The notes under the pieces: model-generated
Database searches by the model: none
What the model saw: the letters and a program-made list of their open reading frames with translations, nothing else
Told to the model about the DNA's origin: nothing
Translations under genes and position numbers: made by a program
Shown: in pieces, positions 2,985-63,596 of the stretch
Layout: each line of letters opens with the position of its first letter
Position numbering within the stretch: the stretch's first letter is position 1
DNA from: Escherichia coli
GTDB lineage: Bacteria > Pseudomonadota > Gammaproteobacteria > Enterobacterales > Enterobacteriaceae
Length of the DNA stretch: 64,000 nucleotides
NCBI RefSeq assembly: GCF_041886205.1
Contig: NZ_CP169029.1
Direction: 5' to 3' (one strand)

Positions 2985-4334
2985 ATGTCTGAAATTGTTG
3001 TCTCCAAATTTGGCGGTACCAGCGTAGCTGATTTTGACGCCATGAACCGCAGCGCTGATATTGTGCTTTCTGATGCCAACGTGCGTTTAGTAGTCCTCTC
3101 GGCTTCTGCTGGTATCACTAATCTGCTGGTCGCTTTAGCGGAAGGGCTGGAACCTGGCGAGCGATTCGAAAAACTCGACGCAATCCGCAATATCCAGTTT
3201 GCCATTCTGGAACGTCTGCGTTACCCGAACGTTATCCGTGAAGAGATTGAACGTCTGCTGGAGAACATTACTGTTCTGGCAGAAGCGGCGGCGCTGGCAA
3301 CGTCTCCGGCGCTGACAGATGAGCTGGTCAGCCACGGCGAGCTGATGTCGACCCTGCTGTTTGTCGAAATCCTGCGCGAACGCGATGTTCAGGCACAGTG
3401 GTTTGATGTACGTAAAGTGATGCGTACCAACGACCGATTTGGTCGTGCAGAGCCAGATGTAGCCGCGCTGGCGGAACTGGCCGCGCTGCAGCTGCTCCCA
3501 CGCCTCAATGAAGGCTTAGTGATCACCCAGGGATTTATCGGTAGCGAAAATAAAGGTCGTACAACGACGCTTGGCCGTGGAGGCAGCGATTATACGGCAG
3601 CCTTGCTGGCGGAGGCTTTACACGCATCTCGTGTTGATATCTGGACCGACGTCCCGGGCATCTACACCACCGATCCACGCGTGGTTTCCGCAGCAAAACG
3701 CATTGATGAAATCGCGTTTGCCGAAGCGGCAGAGATGGCAACTTTTGGTGCAAAAGTACTGCATCCGGCAACGTTGCTACCCGCAGTACGCAGCGATATC
3801 CCGGTCTTTGTCGGCTCCAGCAAAGACCCACGCGCAGGTGGTACGCTGGTGTGCAATAAAACTGAAAATCCGCCGCTGTTCCGCGCGCTGGCGCTTCGTC
3901 GCAATCAGACTCTGCTCACTTTGCACAGCCTGAATATGCTGCATTCTCGCGGCTTCCTCGCGGAAGTTTTCGGCATCCTCGCGCGGCATAACATTTCGGT
4001 AGACTTAATCACCACGTCAGAAGTGAGCGTGGCATTAACCCTTGATACCACCGGTTCAACCTCCACTGGCGATACGTTGCTGACGCAATCTCTGCTGATG
4101 GAGCTTTCCGCACTGTGCCGGGTGGAGGTGGAAGAAGGTCTGGCGCTGGTCGCGTTGATTGGCAATGACCTGTCAAAAGCCTGCGGCGTTGGCAAAGAGG
4201 TATTCGGCGTACTGGAACCGTTCAACATTCGCATGATTTGTTATGGCGCATCCAGCCATAACCTGTGCTTCCTGGTGCCCGGCGAAGATGCCGAGCAGGT
4301 GGTGCAGAAGCTGCATTTTAATTTGTTTGAGTAA
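2985..4334 (+). CDS. lysC: Lysine-sensitive aspartokinase III
   Basis: 449-aa ORF MSEIVVSKFGGTSVADFDAMNRSADIVLSD..., ATG at 2985. Confidence 0.97.
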   Translation: MSEIVVSKFGGTSVADFDAMNRSADIVLSDANVRLVVLSASAGITNLLVALAEGLEPGERFEKLDAIRNIQFAILERLRYPNVIREEIERLLENITVLAEAAALATSPALTDELVSHGELMSTLLFVEILRERDVQAQWFDVRKVMRTNDRFGRAEPDVAALAELAALQLLPRLNEGLVITQGFIGSENKGRTTTLGRGGSDYTAALLAEALHASRVDIWTDVPGIYTTDPRVVSAAKRIDEIAFAEAAEMATFGAKVLHPATLLPAVRSDIPVFVGSSKDPRAGGTLVCNKTENPPLFRALALRRNQTLLTLHSLNMLHSRGFLAEVFGILARHNISVDLITTSEVSVALTLDTTGSTSTGDTLLTQSLLMELSALCRVEVEEGLALVALIGNDLSKACGVGKEVFGVLEPFNIRMICYGASSHNLCFLVPGEDAEQVVQKLHFNLFE

Positions 4335-4478
4335 TATTTCCCTACTGGCGTATAACGCTCACCAATTGTTATACGCCATCCTCACTGAAAATATAGATTA
4401 AATAATATCTGAAAAATAAAATCACTCCTGTAGAACAGTATTATAATCACCGAAAAATATTATTTAACAGGAGTGTTA

Positions 4479-5405
4479 ATGGCTACTTTAATGGAAAAAG
4501 ATGCACTTTTAAATGGCACCAGTCAGTGCATCGCGTTTTTATCAAATATCGTTGATAATTGCTCAGTTTCGTCACGTCAGGATTCAGGCGATGATCTCAC
4601 ACGATTAGTCAGCTATCGCGATTATCTTTACTCTACCCCCGCTGAACTTGTTGATTTTACACAGGGAAAGAGTCACCTTCAGCAGATTAGAACTCAATAT
4701 CAGCATGAATTCAACAATACTACGCATTCAGAAAATAAAGCATCTTTTGATTCTATTTGGCAGCGTCTGACAAATCATGAAGTCACACCGCAACAGCATC
4801 CCATTGGTTTTGTTTTAGGTGGGCAACCCGGAGCAGGTAAATCATCTCTGATTGAATTAGCCAAAAGAGAGACAAAAGATAATATAATGATTATTAACGG
4901 TGATGATTTTCGATTTCTACACCCTGATTTTAATTATATCTACCAAAATTATGGGGATGATTTTGTTACCCATACAGCGAAATTTTCCGGCGAAACGGTC
5001 GAACGTGCAATTGAGAGAGCGATAGTCAGTAAACTCAACATTGTTGTCGAAGGAACATTTCGTAATGCCGCTACGCCGTTACAAACATTAAAAAAACTCA
5101 AAGATGCAGGCTACCAAACAGAAGTCATGATAAAAACAACCTCAGCGGCATTAAGCTGGGAAAGCACCAATGAACGGTATAATAAGGACAAAGAGGCGGG
5201 AAATATTGCCCGAAAAGTGGATAAAAACCACCATGATATCGTCACCGGTTTGCTGGCAGAAAATGCCCGCAAGGTGTTTGCTTCGAACCTGTCAGATAAG
5301 TTTGCGGTGTATTCGCGTGAGAAGATGATATTTAGTTCACAAGCGGCAACGAATGACGATATTGCAACGCTTATACAGAATGAAATCAGCGGGAATACAC
5401 AATAA
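4479..5405 (+). CDS. Zeta-toxin-family P-loop kinase with ~100-aa N-terminal extension (EzeT-like single-chain toxin-antitoxin candidate)
   Basis: ATG at 4479 preceded by AGGAG (4468-4472); the ORF track starts 2 codons earlier at a GTG (4473). Walker A GGQPGAGKS at 4818-4844 and GDDFR at 4899-4913, as in zeta/PezT UNAG kinases; gene is visibly AT-rich compared with its neighbours. Confidence 0.8.
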   Translation: MATLMEKDALLNGTSQCIAFLSNIVDNCSVSSRQDSGDDLTRLVSYRDYLYSTPAELVDFTQGKSHLQQIRTQYQHEFNNTTHSENKASFDSIWQRLTNHEVTPQQHPIGFVLGGQPGAGKSSLIELAKRETKDNIMIINGDDFRFLHPDFNYIYQNYGDDFVTHTAKFSGETVERAIERAIVSKLNIVVEGTFRNAATPLQTLKKLKDAGYQTEVMIKTTSAALSWESTNERYNKDKEAGNIARKVDKNHHDIVTGLLAENARKVFASNLSDKFAVYSREKMIFSSQAATNDDIATLIQNEISGNTQ

Positions 5406-5440
5406 TAATAAGAGCTGATGGCGTGAAATAACGCCGGGCA

Positions 5441-6241
5441 TCACGCCCGGCGCATTACCGTCTGGTACATTAAGCTATCCAGTTCCTTAACGTCCCCTTC
5501 TCTGCTATCCGGTAACAGCGGTGGAATTTCCCCACGCGCCAGTTCCGCACGAATAAACGCATGTAACAATGGACGGCGCGGACCATATTCCGCTTCTCCT
5601 GCGCGCTGTTTACGTCCCAGTAATTCGTCTATTTCTGCACGTAACGGCGCATCAAGTTCACTTCCCGCCAGTAGCTCAGCAAAGCGCATTGGCGGCACGC
5701 CTTTTCCCGCTTCGACCCAGCGCACGGCCAGCAGCGGACGCAGCACGTAAAAGTATTTTTTCAGTCGAACTTCATCGCCCTGCAAATATCCGCGGAAGTT
5801 TTTCTGCGCCATCGAATAGTAATGCCAGCGCGCACGCAGCGGAGAAAACCACATTGGGACCATTGCCTTAAGCGCCGTTATCGTTTCTTCATCTTGTTGA
5901 TAGACCACCGGAGAATCCAGCCATTCTATCAGCGTCGGGTTCGCGCCTTTCAATAATCCCAGCGCCTTACGCCACTCCCAACCGGAAACATCTAACTCGT
6001 CGTCGATGGGCAGCTCGATAACATCGCGCGGCGGCTCCACCCGCAGATACCATTCCAGCGGGTGAACATACAAAAACCGTACATCGTAGTCGCTGTCGGG
6101 CGAGGCAAACCCCCAGCCGCGGCTCCCGGATTCACAGGCATACAGCACTTTCACGCCGTAGCGCCGTTCTATTTCTTTTAACTGCTGCGATACCCGTTCG
6201 CGCATCGCAGCACTGACTCCATTTAATGGCATGTTACTCAC
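5441..6241 (-). CDS. Pol-beta-superfamily nucleotidyltransferase-fold protein of unknown specificity
   Basis: 266-aa ORF from a GTG at 6241 that overlaps the upstream SPFH stop; alternative in-frame ATG at 6232. Contains GS-x10-DYDV (coding 6083-6127), the classic hG[GS]...DhDh NTase signature, plus downstream acidic residues (IELPIDDELD). Confidence 0.75.
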   Translation of the reverse strand: MSNMPLNGVSAAMRERVSQQLKEIERRYGVKVLYACESGSRGWGFASPDSDYDVRFLYVHPLEWYLRVEPPRDVIELPIDDELDVSGWEWRKALGLLKGANPTLIEWLDSPVVYQQDEETITALKAMVPMWFSPLRARWHYYSMAQKNFRGYLQGDEVRLKKYFYVLRPLLAVRWVEAGKGVPPMRFAELLAGSELDAPLRAEIDELLGRKQRAGEAEYGPRRPLLHAFIRAELARGEIPPLLPDSREGDVKELDSLMYQTVMRRA

Positions 6242-7365
6242 CCTTTGATATTAACCAACCCATGCAGAACCTGATCCAGACCGCCAAATACAGAGATGTT
6301 ATCGATCCGCTCAGCCACTCTCTCCAGCGTTTCTAGCTCTTTTAAACGCAACGCTACCGGATTGTTCTCCATGACTTTGGCGGTGTTCAGTAACGAGCGC
6401 GTCGCTGCCGTTTCTTCACGTCGGCGAATCACATTCGCCTGCGCAGATTTCTCCGCCTCAACCAGCTGCGCAAGGATATTTTTCATATCGCCAGGCAGGA
6501 CGATATCTTTCACCCCTAATGAAGCAATCTCCATACCAAATGGCAACATGCGCGATTTCACCTGTTCGCTGACAACGTCATCAATGACCTGTTTATCTTC
6601 CAGCAGTTCATCCAGCGTACGAGTACCTACCGCTTCACGCAGGGCAAATTGCAATTCCCGATACAAATGATCAATCGGCTTCGTTAACTGACTAAATGCT
6701 AATAACACGTCGCTGTAGCGCCAGTTAGCCGCGAGGTTAATCCGCAGATTGACCTTATCTTTCGTTAAGATTTCTTGCCCGCTGACTTCCAGTACCTGCA
6801 AGCGGGTGTCAACCACTTCAGTTTCAACCAGATGGTTAATTTTCCAGTACGCGGTAAGCCCCGGCGGTAACAGCGCCTGCGTTTCACCATCGATTTTCAG
6901 CACGCCTACATGCCAGGCCGGAACCTGCACCGTCAGTATCGCATCGCGGCCTTTAACAACTCCTTTGCGCCGTGGCTGTAATACCGCATTCATCACCTCC
7001 GTTTGTACCGGGACTTGCTGCGTATTCATCCGCACCAGCGTCAAATCATCCTCTACACGCCAGTACAAACGACGCGTTGATGGCAGCAGGATCTCCAGCA
7101 AAATACCGTCCATATACAACGCCCCGGCTTCAGTCTCCGACAAGTCTGCCACCAGGCAATATTTCTCCACCCAATCAGGCTGAAAGCGGCGCAAATAGTC
7201 CGCCAGCACGTCGGGAACTTCGCTACCATCCAGCGTAATCAGCAACACTTCCGGGGTATTAAACCAGGGTAAAAAATGCTCGCCTGCATGTAGCACTTTG
7301 TAGTAATCGCCGTTTCTGGAGAGTAATGCCAGCTGATCTTTTCTTACGCTTATTTTTTTAATCAT
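6238..7365 (-). CDS. SPFH/band-7 (stomatin/prohibitin-like) domain protein with no predicted membrane anchor and a ~135-aa N-terminal domain of unknown function
   Basis: 375-aa ORF, ATG at 7363-7365 with AGGAA 7 nt upstream; SPFH hallmarks (PPGLTAYWK...TKDKVNLRINLAANWRY...GMEIASLGVKDIVLPGDMK) and C-terminal coiled-coil-like AEKSAQANVIRRREE...; no hydrophobic stretch of TM length seen by eye. Confidence 0.8.
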   Translation of the reverse strand: MIKKISVRKDQLALLSRNGDYYKVLHAGEHFLPWFNTPEVLLITLDGSEVPDVLADYLRRFQPDWVEKYCLVADLSETEAGALYMDGILLEILLPSTRRLYWRVEDDLTLVRMNTQQVPVQTEVMNAVLQPRRKGVVKGRDAILTVQVPAWHVGVLKIDGETQALLPPGLTAYWKINHLVETEVVDTRLQVLEVSGQEILTKDKVNLRINLAANWRYSDVLLAFSQLTKPIDHLYRELQFALREAVGTRTLDELLEDKQVIDDVVSEQVKSRMLPFGMEIASLGVKDIVLPGDMKNILAQLVEAEKSAQANVIRRREETAATRSLLNTAKVMENNPVALRLKELETLERVAERIDNISVFGGLDQVLHGLVNIKG

Positions 7366-7893
7366 TATCTATTCCTTGCTTAACAGCCGTCGCGGAAGCA
7401 GACACGAAGCGACAGGGGAATTCCCTTTTGCCTGTTACCCGGCGTCTTTATCGGCGACGTTATCGGGGATCGCTGACTGCGCAATCCCTCATTTTTTATT
7501 TAATAAGTTACAACCAGTATTCATTTCAGGAATGAATGTGGGAATCGAACCCATAATTGGCGTCAAAGGCTGACGGAACACGCCCGGAAAACAGCCTGAC
7601 CGTTCCTGGTGTGCCGACGGGGTTTAACCCCCTTTGAAATTCAGTTTCAACGCATAGGAGTTATTGCGAGAATCGTGCCAGAAGTAAAAAAAACACCTAA
7701 TCAAATGAAAAATAAAGATTTAATAAATTATTGTTTTTTATTGGGGGAAAACTTTTCGCTAAATTTGTATCTGTATTTATCATCAATTATCAAGAAAGAT
7801 AAATATTTCAGAAGAGAATAAAGGAATATTATCAGTTCTGCTTGCAAATGAATTCCCGTACACTGAATCCATCGGCTCACTGAGGGCACCATC

Positions 7894-8166
7894 ATGGCAC
7901 TCCCCCGTATTACCCAAAAAGAGATGACTGAACGCGAGCAGCGTGAACTTAAAACACTGCTGGATCGGGCGCGGATTGCGCATGGTCGCGTACTGACCAA
8001 CTCCGAAACCAACAGCATTAAGAAAGAGTACATCGATAAATTAATGGTTGAGCGTGAGGCTGAAGCAAAAAAAGCCCGCCAATTGAAGAAAAAGCAGGCT
8101 TATAAACCGGATCCTGAAGCGTCATTTAGCTGGTCAGCAAATACGTCGACGCGCGGCAGGCGCTGA
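7894..8166 (+). CDS. yjbD: YjbD (DUF3811 family small protein)
   Basis: 90-aa ORF MALPRITQKEMTEREQRELK..., convergent and abutting rluF as in E. coli. Confidence 0.85.
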   Translation: MALPRITQKEMTEREQRELKTLLDRARIAHGRVLTNSETNSIKKEYIDKLMVEREAEAKKARQLKKKQAYKPDPEASFSWSANTSTRGRR

Positions 8167-9039
8167 TTAGCGCCCCTTCTTTTTTCGCCCCGGCGAGGTA
8201 AAACGCTTACCGTTGGACGCCGGGCGACCGCCTTTTTCCGCCGTTTTTTCCATCTTAACGACTGGGCGTTTGATGCCCGCCGTTTTCGGTTTGGCCTTCG
8301 CTTTAGGTTTTGCCTCGGAAGAGGAATTTTCGATGAGTTTAAAGAGGTCGATTAACTCATCGTCAGTTAAATCGCGCCACTCACCCAGCGGAATGCCGCT
8401 TAAACTGACGTTCATAATGCGCGTACGTTCCAGCTTTTTCACTTCGTAACCAAAGTGCTCGCACATGCGACGGATCTGACGGTTCAGCCCCTGCACCAGG
8501 GTAATGCGGAAGACAAACGGCGCTTCTTTTTTGACTTTGCACTTTTTCGTCACCGTCCCGAGGATCGGCACTCCCGCCCCCATACCACGAATAAATTCAT
8601 CGGTAATCGGTTTATCGACCGTCACCAGATACTCTTTCTCATGATCGTTACCCGCACGGAGGATCTTATTCACCAGATCGCCGTGATTGGTGAGGAAAAT
8701 CAGCCCCTGGGAGTCTTTATCCAGGCGGCCAATCGGGAACACGCGTTTGCTGTGGTTAACGAAATCGACAATGTTATCGCGCTCGCCATCTTCGGTGGTG
8801 CTGACAATACCGACGGGCTTGTTCAGGGCGATAAGTACCAAATCTTCGGCTTCCCGAGGCTCAATCAACTGACCGTTTACTTTCACAACGTCGCCGGGTT
8901 TCACCTGATCGCCAATGGTGGCTCGCTTGCCATTAAGGAACACATTGCCTTGCTCGATATAGCGATCCGCTTCGCGGCGTGAGCAAATTCCGCTTTCGCT
9001 GATGTATTTATTTAAACGGACTGATGAGTCGGGCAGCAT
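8167..9039 (-). CDS. rluF: 23S rRNA pseudouridine synthase F
   Basis: 290-aa ORF with S4 domain N-terminus ([26 protein letters not shown]) and RsuA-type catalytic core, Lys/Ala/Pro-rich basic C-terminal tail. Confidence 0.93.
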
Positions 9040-29134: not shown

Positions 29135-29210
29135 TGGCGTCCCCTAGGGGATTCGAACCCCTGTTACCGCCGTGAAAGGGCGGTGTCCTGGGCCTCTAGA
29201 CGAAGGGGAC
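29135..29210 (-). tRNA. gltV: tRNA-Glu (UUC) in the 16S-23S spacer
   Basis: 76-nt match to GTCCCCTTCGTCTAGAGGCCCAGGACACCGCCCTTTCACGGCGGTAACAGGGGTTCGAATCCCCTAGGGGACGCCA (reverse complement). Confidence 0.97.
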
Positions 29211-34342: not shown

Positions 34343-35664
34343 CGCGACAGTTTTGCCAATAGCGTTTTGCGCGTGATCCCTAACTGACGGGCGGCTTCGG
34401 TTTTGTTGCCGCCCGTTTTCTCCAGCGCCGCCAGAATCACCTCTTTTTCCACTTCCACCAACGGCTGAATATCCTGACTTTGTCCCAGCGGGATCGGCGT
34501 ACTGGCAATCGCCAGCGGCAGCTCGCGTTCGGAAATATATTCCCCGGTCAGCAGCACCACTGCCCGTTCCACCGCGTTTTCCAGCTCACGAATATTTCCC
34601 GGCCAGTCGTAATGAATCAACAGATCCATCGCCTGGGGCGTAAAACCTTTTACCGCCTTGCGATTACGCTCGGCAAAGCGCTGCAGAAAATGGCCAGCCA
34701 GCAGAGGGATATCTTCCCGCCGTTGCCGCAGCGATGGTACTTCAATCGCCACCACATTCAGGCGATAGTAGAGATCCTGGCGAAAACGCCCGGCATTCAC
34801 CTCTGCGGCAAGATCGCGATGGGTCGCCGCAATCAGCCGGACATCAACCGAGATAATCTGGTTGCTACCGACACGCTGAACTTCGCGCTCCTGAATCGCA
34901 CGCAGCAGACGCACCTGCATCATCGGCGAGATATCGCCAATTTCATCGAGAAACAGCGTGCCGCCGTCCGCCTCAACAAAGCGCCCTTCCCGGCGTTTAT
35001 CGGCTCCAGTAAACGCCCCTTTTTCGTGACCGAACAATTCAGATTCCAGCAAGGATTCGTTGAGTGCCGCACAGTTGAGCGTTACCAGCGGTTTTTCGCT
35101 ACGTGCGCTACTGGCGTGAATCGCCCTGGCGACCAGCTCTTTACCGGTGCCGGAATCGCCGTGGATCAGTACCGTGGCTTCCGATGGCGCGACGAGGGCG
35201 ATTTCACTGAGCAGGTGTTGCATCGCCGGGCTTTTACCGACCATACCGAACTGGCTGGCAGTCACCGCAGGTGTTTCAGCATCAATACTGTGCGTATGCG
35301 CGAGCGCTTTTTCCAGCGTCGCCTGTAGGTTATCGAAATCCAGCGGCTTGATGAGATAATCCAGCGCCCCAGTTTTCAGTGCCTCTACCGCCGTCTCGAC
35401 GCTGGAGTACGCAGTCATAATCAGCACCGGAATTGCCGGGTTTAACGCTTTGATCTCTTTCAGCGTGGCGATGCCGTCCATCTCCGCCATTCGCACATCG
35501 CAAAGCACAAGATCAAAAACCTGTTCCCGCACCTGCTCCAACGCCTGTCGCCCGCTGTTCGCCAGCGCGACGTTATAGCCCCAGCCGCGCAGTAAAGCCT
35601 GCAAAATAGTGCAGTGGCTAATGTCATCATCCACCACCAGAATATCGATATTATCGTGCGTCAT
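34339..35664 (-). CDS. zraR: Sigma-54-dependent response regulator ZraR
   Basis: 441-aa ORF with receiver domain, AAA+ sigma-54 activator core (GESGTGKE, GAFTGA) and C-terminal HTH. Confidence 0.93.
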
Positions 35665-63154: not shown

Positions 63155-63230
63155 TGGTGCTGATAGGCAGATTCGAACTGCCGACCTCACCCTTACCAAG
63201 GGTGCGCTCTACCAACTGAGCTATATCAGC
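63155..63230 (-). tRNA. thrT: tRNA-Thr (GGU)
   Basis: Reverse complement reads GCTGATATAGCTCAGTTGGTAGAGCGCACCCTTGGTAAGGGTGAGGTCGGCAGTTCGAATCTGCCTATCAGCACCA. Confidence 0.97.
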
Positions 63231-63236
63231 ACATCT

Positions 63237-63311
<75 letters not shown>

Positions 63312-63427
63312 ATCCTGGAACTCGGCTACCTGATTTTCATTCTGCACTGAATATCGAGAGAAGCTCTCTTTATTCGAGCCGGTAAGCGAACTTATCGTCT
63401 CGGGCTACGCCATCGCGTGGCCGAAAT

Positions 63428-63512
<85 letters not shown>

Positions 63513-63520
63513 GGACTTGA

Positions 63521-63596
<76 letters not shown>

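Follow-up and report, generated by a model that had tools for sequence, protein, structure and literature searches.

The window analyzed here, a 64,000-nucleotide stretch of an Escherichia coli chromosome (contig NZ_CP169029.1), carries in order pgi, lysC, a zeta-toxin-family gene on the plus strand, rlaP and a slipin gene on the minus strand, yjbD, rluF and pepE. We are concerned with rlaP, in whose product a first-pass annotation had reported an intact GS-x10-DYDV nucleotidyltransferase signature, and with the slipin gene, structured RNA leader and sigma54-type promoter that precede it. The motif itself is ordinary and marks the E. coli orthologue of RlaP, a family whose name dates from 2016 and whose first assays date from 2025. 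The genomic setting tells more than the motif, in that ~30% of E. coli have a short unit, under selection, in which a sigma54 promoter and a structured RNA precede the slipin and rlaP genes. The coding sequence and its active-site elements are:

5441..6232, minus strand: rlaP coding sequence, 263 amino acids from the ATG at 6232, stop codon at 5441-5443 (RefSeq WP_001130539.1)
6083..6127, minus strand: the reported motif GSRGWGFASPDSDYD, from G36-S37 (the turn that binds nucleoside triphosphate, NTP) through D48-x-D50 (the first two metal ligands)
5990..5992, minus strand: codon of D81, the third catalytic aspartate (LDVSGW, third core strand), assigned from conservation and a structural model

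The signature is not a chance match, because the entire protein aligns end to end with the Pfam RlaP family (PF10127; residues 13-259 against positions 1-248 of the 249-position model, E=3.8e-95), and the translated motif falls within this match. PHROG 14344, a nucleotidyltransferase family, also matched RlaP over its full length (E=1e-123), in agreement with the known phage members of the RlaP family. Judged from these profiles, the product is an ordinary, well-conserved Pol-beta nucleotidyltransferase of a family that already has a name. The size of about 266 amino acids given earlier is that of the longest open reading frame (5441..6241, minus strand), which begins with a GTG at 6241. The ATG at 6232, which is the start both in RefSeq, where the identical locus is annotated, and in orthologues, yields 263 amino acids and is the likelier start by this comparison; residue numbers given here follow the 263-residue protein. 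Because RlaP had no match in NCBIfam or PADLOC profile searches and the slipin had none in PADLOC, the pair is not a catalogued defense system; in NCBIfam, the slipin drew only sub-cutoff matches to HflK and HflC.

Downstream of the motif region (ESGSRGWGFASPDSDYDV), the reading frame encodes the acidic stretch IELPIDDELD, which had been proposed as a third acidic cluster about 25 residues past the signature. This proposal was partly borne out: the last aspartate of the stretch, D81, is the conserved third carboxylate, but it lies 31 residues past D50, and the neighboring D77 and D78 vary among homologues. In a deep alignment of 82 full-length homologues, the most divergent of which shared 38% identity with the query, the invariant positions included E34, G36, S37, R38, W40, S47, D48, R52, Y55, Y62, D81, G84, W85 and K89, among others, and D50 was conserved in at least 90% of the sequences. 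A survey of the three aspartates was extended to all 270 retrieved homologues, with 120 close relatives and 148 cluster representatives that cover the region. Close homologues lacking the motif, which had been suggested as evidence against a functional active site, were sought and none was found, the triad being kept in 120 of 120; among the representatives, D48 was present in 148 of 148, D50 in 147 (one glutamate) and D81 in 147 (one alanine). The catalytic set predicted from this conservation is G36-S37, D48, D50 and D81.

An AlphaFold2 model built from the alignment was confident (predicted local distance difference test score, pLDDT, 96.5; predicted template-modeling score, pTM, 0.92) and displays the canonical order of strand, GS turn, helix, strand bearing DxD and later strand bearing the third aspartate: a strand at 28-34, G36-S37, a short helix at 37-40, a strand at 49-56 that opens at the DxD and a strand at 80-86 containing D81. 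The N-terminal part (28-113) is of alpha/beta type and is followed by helices from 115 to 262, ending with a terminal helix at 248-262; this C-terminal half resembles HEPN-like helical bundles. PDB sequence searches, both with the protein and with the 82-sequence profile, found no RlaP structure and returned only spurious matches to DR2231 and NKP2. The best Foldseek matches to the model were KNTase/ANT(4'), 3c18, HalB, GlnE, AadA and LinB (E~2e-5, template-modeling score at most 0.46), and the best neighbors in PDB fold searches were DrrA, ANT(3'')(9), HalB, GlnE and KNTase, all of them distant nucleotidyltransferases. With RlaP, the kanamycin nucleotidyltransferase ANT(4'), AadA/ANT(3'')(9), DrrA, GlnE and Hailong HalB share a Pol-beta nucleotidyltransferase core joined to a helical C-terminal domain. 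The structure prediction called for in the first-pass annotation gave a confident nucleotidyltransferase model, but neither sequence profiles nor fold comparison gave a close match to the families named there (ANT/Lnu, AbiEii, CD-NTase/SMODS) or to MNT/HEPN proteins.

The substrate class had been left open. It is no longer so, because Pseudomonas orthologues with ~59% identity add nucleoside monophosphates (NMPs) to RNA 3′-OH ends. According to the December 2025 preprint that reports the first RlaP biochemistry, the enzymes of P. fluorescens and P. aeruginosa extend RNA 3′-OH ends in vitro by one or two NMPs or dNMPs (the deoxy forms), are inactive on 3′-phosphate ends, DNA and protein, prefer Mn2+ or Co2+, show little NTP specificity and favor a nicked-tRNA mimic; when tRNA was treated with RlaP and then ligated, its aminoacylation was improved (10.64898/2025.12.29.696909). 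The crystal structure of the P. fluorescens protein consists of an N-terminal nucleotidyltransferase domain and a C-terminal helical domain whose last helix packs back, with three strictly conserved aspartates (10.64898/2025.12.29.696909). A P. fluorescens RlaP encoded in an rtcB-rlaP-rtcA locus is 59% identical to E. coli RlaP over 251 residues, the motif region being almost unchanged, and by analogy it is strongly expected that the E. coli protein acts on RNA 3′ ends. The Pseudomonas and E. coli proteins have in common PF10127, the GS, DxD and D residues and membership of a wider family of RtcR-controlled operons, and the model of the E. coli protein suggests a similar two-part build. In contrast, Pseudomonas rlaP is placed between the rtcB and rtcA genes and next to rtcR, whereas E. 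coli rlaP follows the slipin gene and has no ligase, cyclase or activator gene in cis.

Members of the same family are also found in phages, namely NrdC.11 of phage T4 and RlaPs of jumbo phages (10.64898/2025.12.29.696909; jumbo-phage survey), and one homologue 51% identical to the E. coli protein was found in a phage-like contig. The phage RlaPs accompany phage RNA ligases, while E. coli rlaP is chromosomal and occupies a syntenic site. A functional analogy may be drawn with the CCA-adding enzyme, which is likewise a template-independent Pol-beta nucleotidyltransferase that restores nucleotides at RNA 3′ ends, although it belongs to another family with a different domain set and makes a defined CCA product, in contrast to the low NTP specificity of RlaP.

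The gene is maintained by strong purifying selection. Among six divergent E. coli alleles, which contain no stop codons or frameshifts, the ratio of nonsynonymous to synonymous divergence (dN/dS) of rlaP was 0.051 at a synonymous divergence (dS) of 0.35, and that of the slipin gene was 0.053 at a synonymous divergence of 0.19; a dN/dS of 0.05 at this depth indicates that rlaP is not decaying. Across genera, dN/dS for rlaP was 0.087 among those without RtcB in cis and 0.169 among those with it, and no internal stops occurred in any of the rlaP sequences compared. Together with the conserved triad, these values uphold the earlier judgment that the enzyme is likely catalytically competent rather than decayed.

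Among complete E. coli genomes, rlaP was present in 1631 of 5426 (~30%), always on the chromosome and with 91-100% nucleotide identity. In 1627 genomes the match covered at least 80% of the gene, and 29 of 29 full-length matches, among the matches listed, are annotated as nucleotidyltransferase proteins. The full 3.6-kb arrangement, including the zeta gene, was found in 1424 genomes; in strains PT62 and LP5-1 this region is interrupted by an IS1 element. E. coli K-12 lacks the slipin-rlaP unit and possesses rtcR. In the same genomes, synonymous divergence was 0.35 for rlaP and 0.19 for the slipin gene (together 5441-7365), as compared to 0.033 for lysC (2985-4334) and 0.088 for yjbD (7894-8166). 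Allelic depth at rlaP is therefore about 10 times that of the flanking lysC, and this peak of divergence suggests either introgression or a polymorphism that is old and has been maintained.

The gene immediately upstream of rlaP encodes a slipin:

6238..7365, minus strand: slipin/SPFH (Band_7) gene, 375 amino acids, with Pfam Band_7 at residues 147-318 (E=1e-23); the gene stops 5 nt short of the rlaP ATG

No transmembrane helix was predicted for this protein, its maximum Kyte-Doolittle score (19-residue window) being 1.13. Comparison of the locus with those of other genera revealed two arrangements, each listed according to whether the lysC/yjbD flanks were detected (the double-headed arrow denotes divergent orientation):

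RtcR <-> Band7-RtcB-RlaP at the lysC/yjbD site: Franconibacter, Enterobacter, Pluralibacter, Siccibacter
RtcR <-> Band7-RtcB-RlaP, flanks not detected: Phytobacter, Erwinia
RtcR <-> Band7-RlaP at the lysC/yjbD site: Klebsiella, Pseudocitrobacter
RtcR <-> Band7-RlaP, flanks not detected: Superficieibacter, Mangrovibacter, Hafnia

More distant relatives, with RlaPs 55-60% identical to that of E. coli, have operons of the form RtcR <-> Band7-(zf)-RtcB-RlaP-(HEAT)-RtcA. Adjacency to an RNA ligase is the feature behind the name of the RlaP family; it is absent at E. coli rlaP and present in the orthologous loci of Franconibacter, Enterobacter, Pluralibacter, Siccibacter and Phytobacter. At the slipin-rlaP locus of the window, tblastn found no RtcR, and no gene for RtcB, RtcA or another ligase was found there. 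Elsewhere in the window, a tblastn match 41% identical to RtcR (34552-35247, minus strand) belongs to the gene of a different sigma54 enhancer-binding protein. The Rtc operons at the same site and in wider relatives indicate that in E. coli the unit represents a reduced RNA-repair operon of the Rtc type, which, by synteny, has lost the rtcR and rtcB of the lysC/yjbD locus; the endpoint of the deletion lies at about the former start of rtcR.

What remains upstream of the slipin gene resembles the control region of the intact operons:

7665..7680, minus strand: sigma54-type promoter TGGCACGATTCTCGCA (-24 GG / -12 GC), conserved across the comparison loci
7681..7810, minus strand: region upstream of the promoter, containing TTATC/GATAA repeats and an AT-rich block resembling an integration host factor (IHF) site, delimited by alignment with other genera

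The window has exactly one sigma54 site upstream of Band7, and of 25 comparison loci 24 likewise have exactly one, at a distance of 310-680 nt; none was found in the remaining locus (L008), where the contig starts just 403 nt before Band7. Both promoter elements, GG and GC, were invariant in the six E. coli alleles, as were the repeat blocks of the upstream region, while the spacers between them varied. A sigma54 promoter with an enhancer-like upstream region, a feature of RtcR-controlled operons, is thereby predicted for the E. coli unit. The 7681..7810 region can be aligned with sequence close to rtcR in 11 other genera and has a partial match to the region upstream of K-12 rtcBA (L097 5081-5268), and it is a putative RtcR enhancer that would have remained after the deletion of rtcR. 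DNA of the canonical rtcR-rtcB is present, at another position, in 5424 of the 5426 complete E. coli genomes. The K-12 RtcR is 62% identical to the RtcR of the island type and nearly identical to it in the C-terminal helix-turn-helix region, and the canonical RtcB is 73% identical to its island-type counterpart. From the resemblance of the upstream repeats and the IHF-like block, it may be that a single RtcR acts at both promoters.

Between the promoter and the slipin gene lies a long leader:

7366..7664, minus strand: structured leader of ~300 nt, predicted to be transcribed and supported by covariation
7539-7553, minus strand: hairpin GGGTTCGATTCCC, resembling a tRNA T-arm and matched by a covariance model of the tRNA associated with band-7 (b7a-tRNA)

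The leader is a conserved structured RNA. In an alignment from 12 genera, RNAalifold predicted 52 pairs, of which 29 show compensatory double changes; 94.5% of the cells were paired, as compared to 40-50% when the partners were slid by 1-3 columns, and none of 500 shuffles reached the observed values. Within E. coli, divergence of the leader was 0.038, or 5-9 times lower than synonymous divergence in the slipin gene and rlaP. An Rfam search of 4300-8200 at permissive thresholds yielded no match in the leader, and ARAGORN called no tRNA in the leader of any Enterobacterales locus. In nine distant loci, on the other hand, ARAGORN identified a tRNA-like gene between the sigma54 promoter and Band7, with assorted "anticodons". 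A b7a-tRNA covariance model constructed from these nine loci recovered full-length copies in six further loci of beta- and gamma-proteobacteria; in the leader of the window it recovered the T-arm only (11 bits, E=2.2). Neither ARAGORN, Rfam nor this model found a tRNA-like cloverleaf upstream of the E. coli Band-7 gene. The enterobacterial leader is probably a remodeled descendant of b7a-tRNA that keeps the T-arm within a larger fold, a connection that rests on its position and on the T-arm.

The "anticodons" of the tRNA-like genes were heterogeneous across loci (Leu, Ser, Phe, Met, Arg and undetermined), and two Pseudomonas loci carry two such genes in tandem between the sigma54 promoter and Band7 (L041 5145-5284 and L044 4134-4279). 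Ordinary tRNAs of the window, a Thr-Gly-Tyr-Thr cluster at 63155-63596 and a tRNA-Glu at 29135-29210 (both on the minus strand), also score with the b7a-tRNA model, which genuine tRNAs are expected to do.

Two groups of known systems resemble the E. coli unit. In the Band-7/b7a-tRNA/RtcB operons (bioRxiv 10.1101/312249, and PMC13086221 for PaFlo8 in the P. aeruginosa rtc locus), an SPFH gene directly follows a sigma54 promoter and a tRNA-related RNA, and RlaP is part of the operon, as in E. coli. Burroughs and Aravind (2016), as cited in bioRxiv 10.1101/312249, proposed that Band-7 and its cognate tRNA-like RNA are a cofactor pair, the "band-7-associated tRNA" being a predicted RNA. The Enterobacterales RNA differs from b7a-tRNA in having no cloverleaf and a larger, different covarying structure, and RtcB is absent from the E. 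coli operon. The rtcR-rtcBA operons of E. coli and Salmonella and the Salmonella rsr-yrlBA-rtcBA operon have the sigma54 promoter, upstream repeats and IHF-like block of the window unit, and share with it the theme of RNA repair and a structured, tRNA-like non-coding RNA within the operon. However, they contain no RlaP or SPFH gene, their RNA partner being Ro60/Rsr with Y RNAs, and the window unit, unlike rtcR-rtcBA, has no activator of its own.

We propose, with a probability of about 0.75, that the intact E. coli RlaP most likely adds one or two untemplated nucleotides to the 3′-OH of damaged RNA, as part of a reduced Rtc unit that is activated in trans by canonical RtcR and whose products are ligated in trans by RtcBA. 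On the structural model, G36-S37 would hold the NTP and D48, D50 and D81 would bind two metals. RNA damage would cause canonical RtcR to switch on the orphan sigma54 promoter; the leader RNA and the soluble slipin would act as a scaffold or cofactor; RlaP, by analogy with its Pseudomonas orthologues, would put back nucleotides lost from RNA 3′ ends, e.g. those of tRNA halves, through trimming by ribotoxins; and canonical RtcBA would complete repair and ligation. Several observations weigh against this proposal. The biochemistry of RlaP comes from Pseudomonas enzymes, described in one preprint (10.64898/2025.12.29.696909), and these leave a 3′-OH, while RtcB requires a 3′-phosphate or cyclic phosphate, a mismatch flagged in the preprint itself. 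E. coli has no adjacent ligase gene, and at least five other genera have lost the RtcB next to Band7-RlaP, such that the pair may need no ligase at all. Finally, the upstream repeats show modest similarity to the K-12 rtcBA region, and activation in trans by canonical RtcR is a step that we infer.

Because RtcB was lost repeatedly beside Band7-RlaP, the main rival to RNA repair in trans is a role that does not depend on ligation, in which leader RNA, slipin and RlaP would constitute a self-sufficient ribonucleoprotein (RNP) module that feeds no ligase. RlaP might then target damaged RNAs for decay by tailing or marking them, or it might lengthen or mend the tRNA-like leader RNA of its operon, with the slipin as its scaffold. 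RtcB is missing in this way from Klebsiella, Superficieibacter, Pseudocitrobacter, Mangrovibacter, Hafnia and E. coli, with both remaining genes under strong purifying selection; the leader is better conserved than nearby synonymous sites, the 3′-OH product is not an RtcB substrate (10.64898/2025.12.29.696909), and pairing of Band-7 with a tRNA-like RNA has been proposed (bioRxiv 10.1101/312249). Nevertheless, we regard such a module as unlikely, though deserving of attention, given that most relatives encode RlaP directly after RtcB and often before RtcA, that tRNA treated with RlaP and then ligated was better aminoacylated (10.64898/2025.12.29.696909), and that E. coli retains canonical RtcBA as a potential partner in trans. 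A target other than RNA is far less probable: a small molecule, as for ANT/Lnu; a protein, through AMPylation of the kind carried out by DrrA and GlnE; or a signaling oligonucleotide, as for HalB and CD-NTases. The weak fold similarity to DrrA, ANT(3'')(9), HalB, GlnE and KNTase would accommodate it, but no Pfam, NCBIfam or PADLOC match to those families was obtained, the Pseudomonas orthologues labeled RNA and not protein or DNA (10.64898/2025.12.29.696909), and the genomic context is one of RNA repair. That rlaP is the functionless remnant of a decayed operon, its motif surviving for lack of time, is harder still to credit and was rejected on the basis of dN/dS. While the locus no longer has rtcR or rtcB and ~70% of E. 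coli genomes lack rlaP, the depth of divergence at such low dN/dS, the absence of stops and frameshifts in six alleles, the near-complete gene in 1627 genomes with its uniform annotation, and the conservation of promoter, upstream repeats and leader all run counter to decay.

The last alternative concerns the neighbor on the other side of rlaP:

4473..5405, plus strand: zeta-toxin-family gene (EzeT-like), matching NCBIfam PezT-like (E=5e-38) and PezT in the PDB (E=5e-33), convergent with rlaP

The product of this gene combines an N-terminal extension of ~85 residues with a PezT-like kinase domain, which fits the description of the single-chain toxin-antitoxin EzeT. The adjacency and convergence of the two genes recall MNT-HEPN pairs and might suggest that RlaP is an antitoxin or partner of the toxin. 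However, three strains that keep slipin-rlaP have no intact zeta gene: an O145 strain (L093) has a frameshift in it, and in PD23 and D6 a P2-like prophage takes its place. None of the other genera with Band7-RlaP carries the zeta gene, and EzeT has its own antitoxin domain in cis. A link between RlaP and the toxin was rejected on the evidence from these strains and genera, and we consider it the least plausible of the explanations weighed here. By the same comparisons, the zeta gene is not part of the slipin-rlaP unit.

A bolder reading can be offered tentatively. In E. coli and several other enterobacteria, leader RNA, soluble SPFH protein and RlaP might form an autonomous RNA-end-modifying RNP that can do without a ligase or an activator of its own and that the canonical RtcR regulon has captured as a satellite regulated in trans. 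Its unusually deep allelic divergence (dS of 0.35, as compared to 0.03 for lysC) would in that case stem from conflict-driven or balancing selection, as in defense loci. A reduced, apparently trans-dependent operon with a remodeled tRNA-derived leader is a modestly interesting variant of the Rtc theme. Because K-12 lacks the unit while retaining RtcR, its presumed controller, it provides a tractable system in which to study the role of SPFH proteins and "band-7-associated" RNA in RNA repair, to reconcile the 3′-OH product of RlaP with the chemistry of RtcB, and to ask whether one RtcR controls two loci. The unit would be a practical place to start work on how SPFH proteins and RNA serve as cofactors when bacteria repair RNA.

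Two further features lie at the 3′ end of rlaP. One was read directly from the sequence and is visible in a sub-threshold Rfam alignment:

5426..5452, minus strand: GC-rich 8-bp hairpin CGCCGGGC/GCCCGGCG that spans the rlaP stop codon and is followed by TTATTTC

The hairpin was not called by a consensus terminator scan, and it is a possible terminator shared with the convergent zeta gene. In addition, in strains PD23 (L092 1-3483) and D6 (L094 1-3486), tail genes of the P2-like prophage directly abut the 3′ end of rlaP, at the position of zeta and lysC in the window. The 3′ site of rlaP appears to be an integration hotspot.

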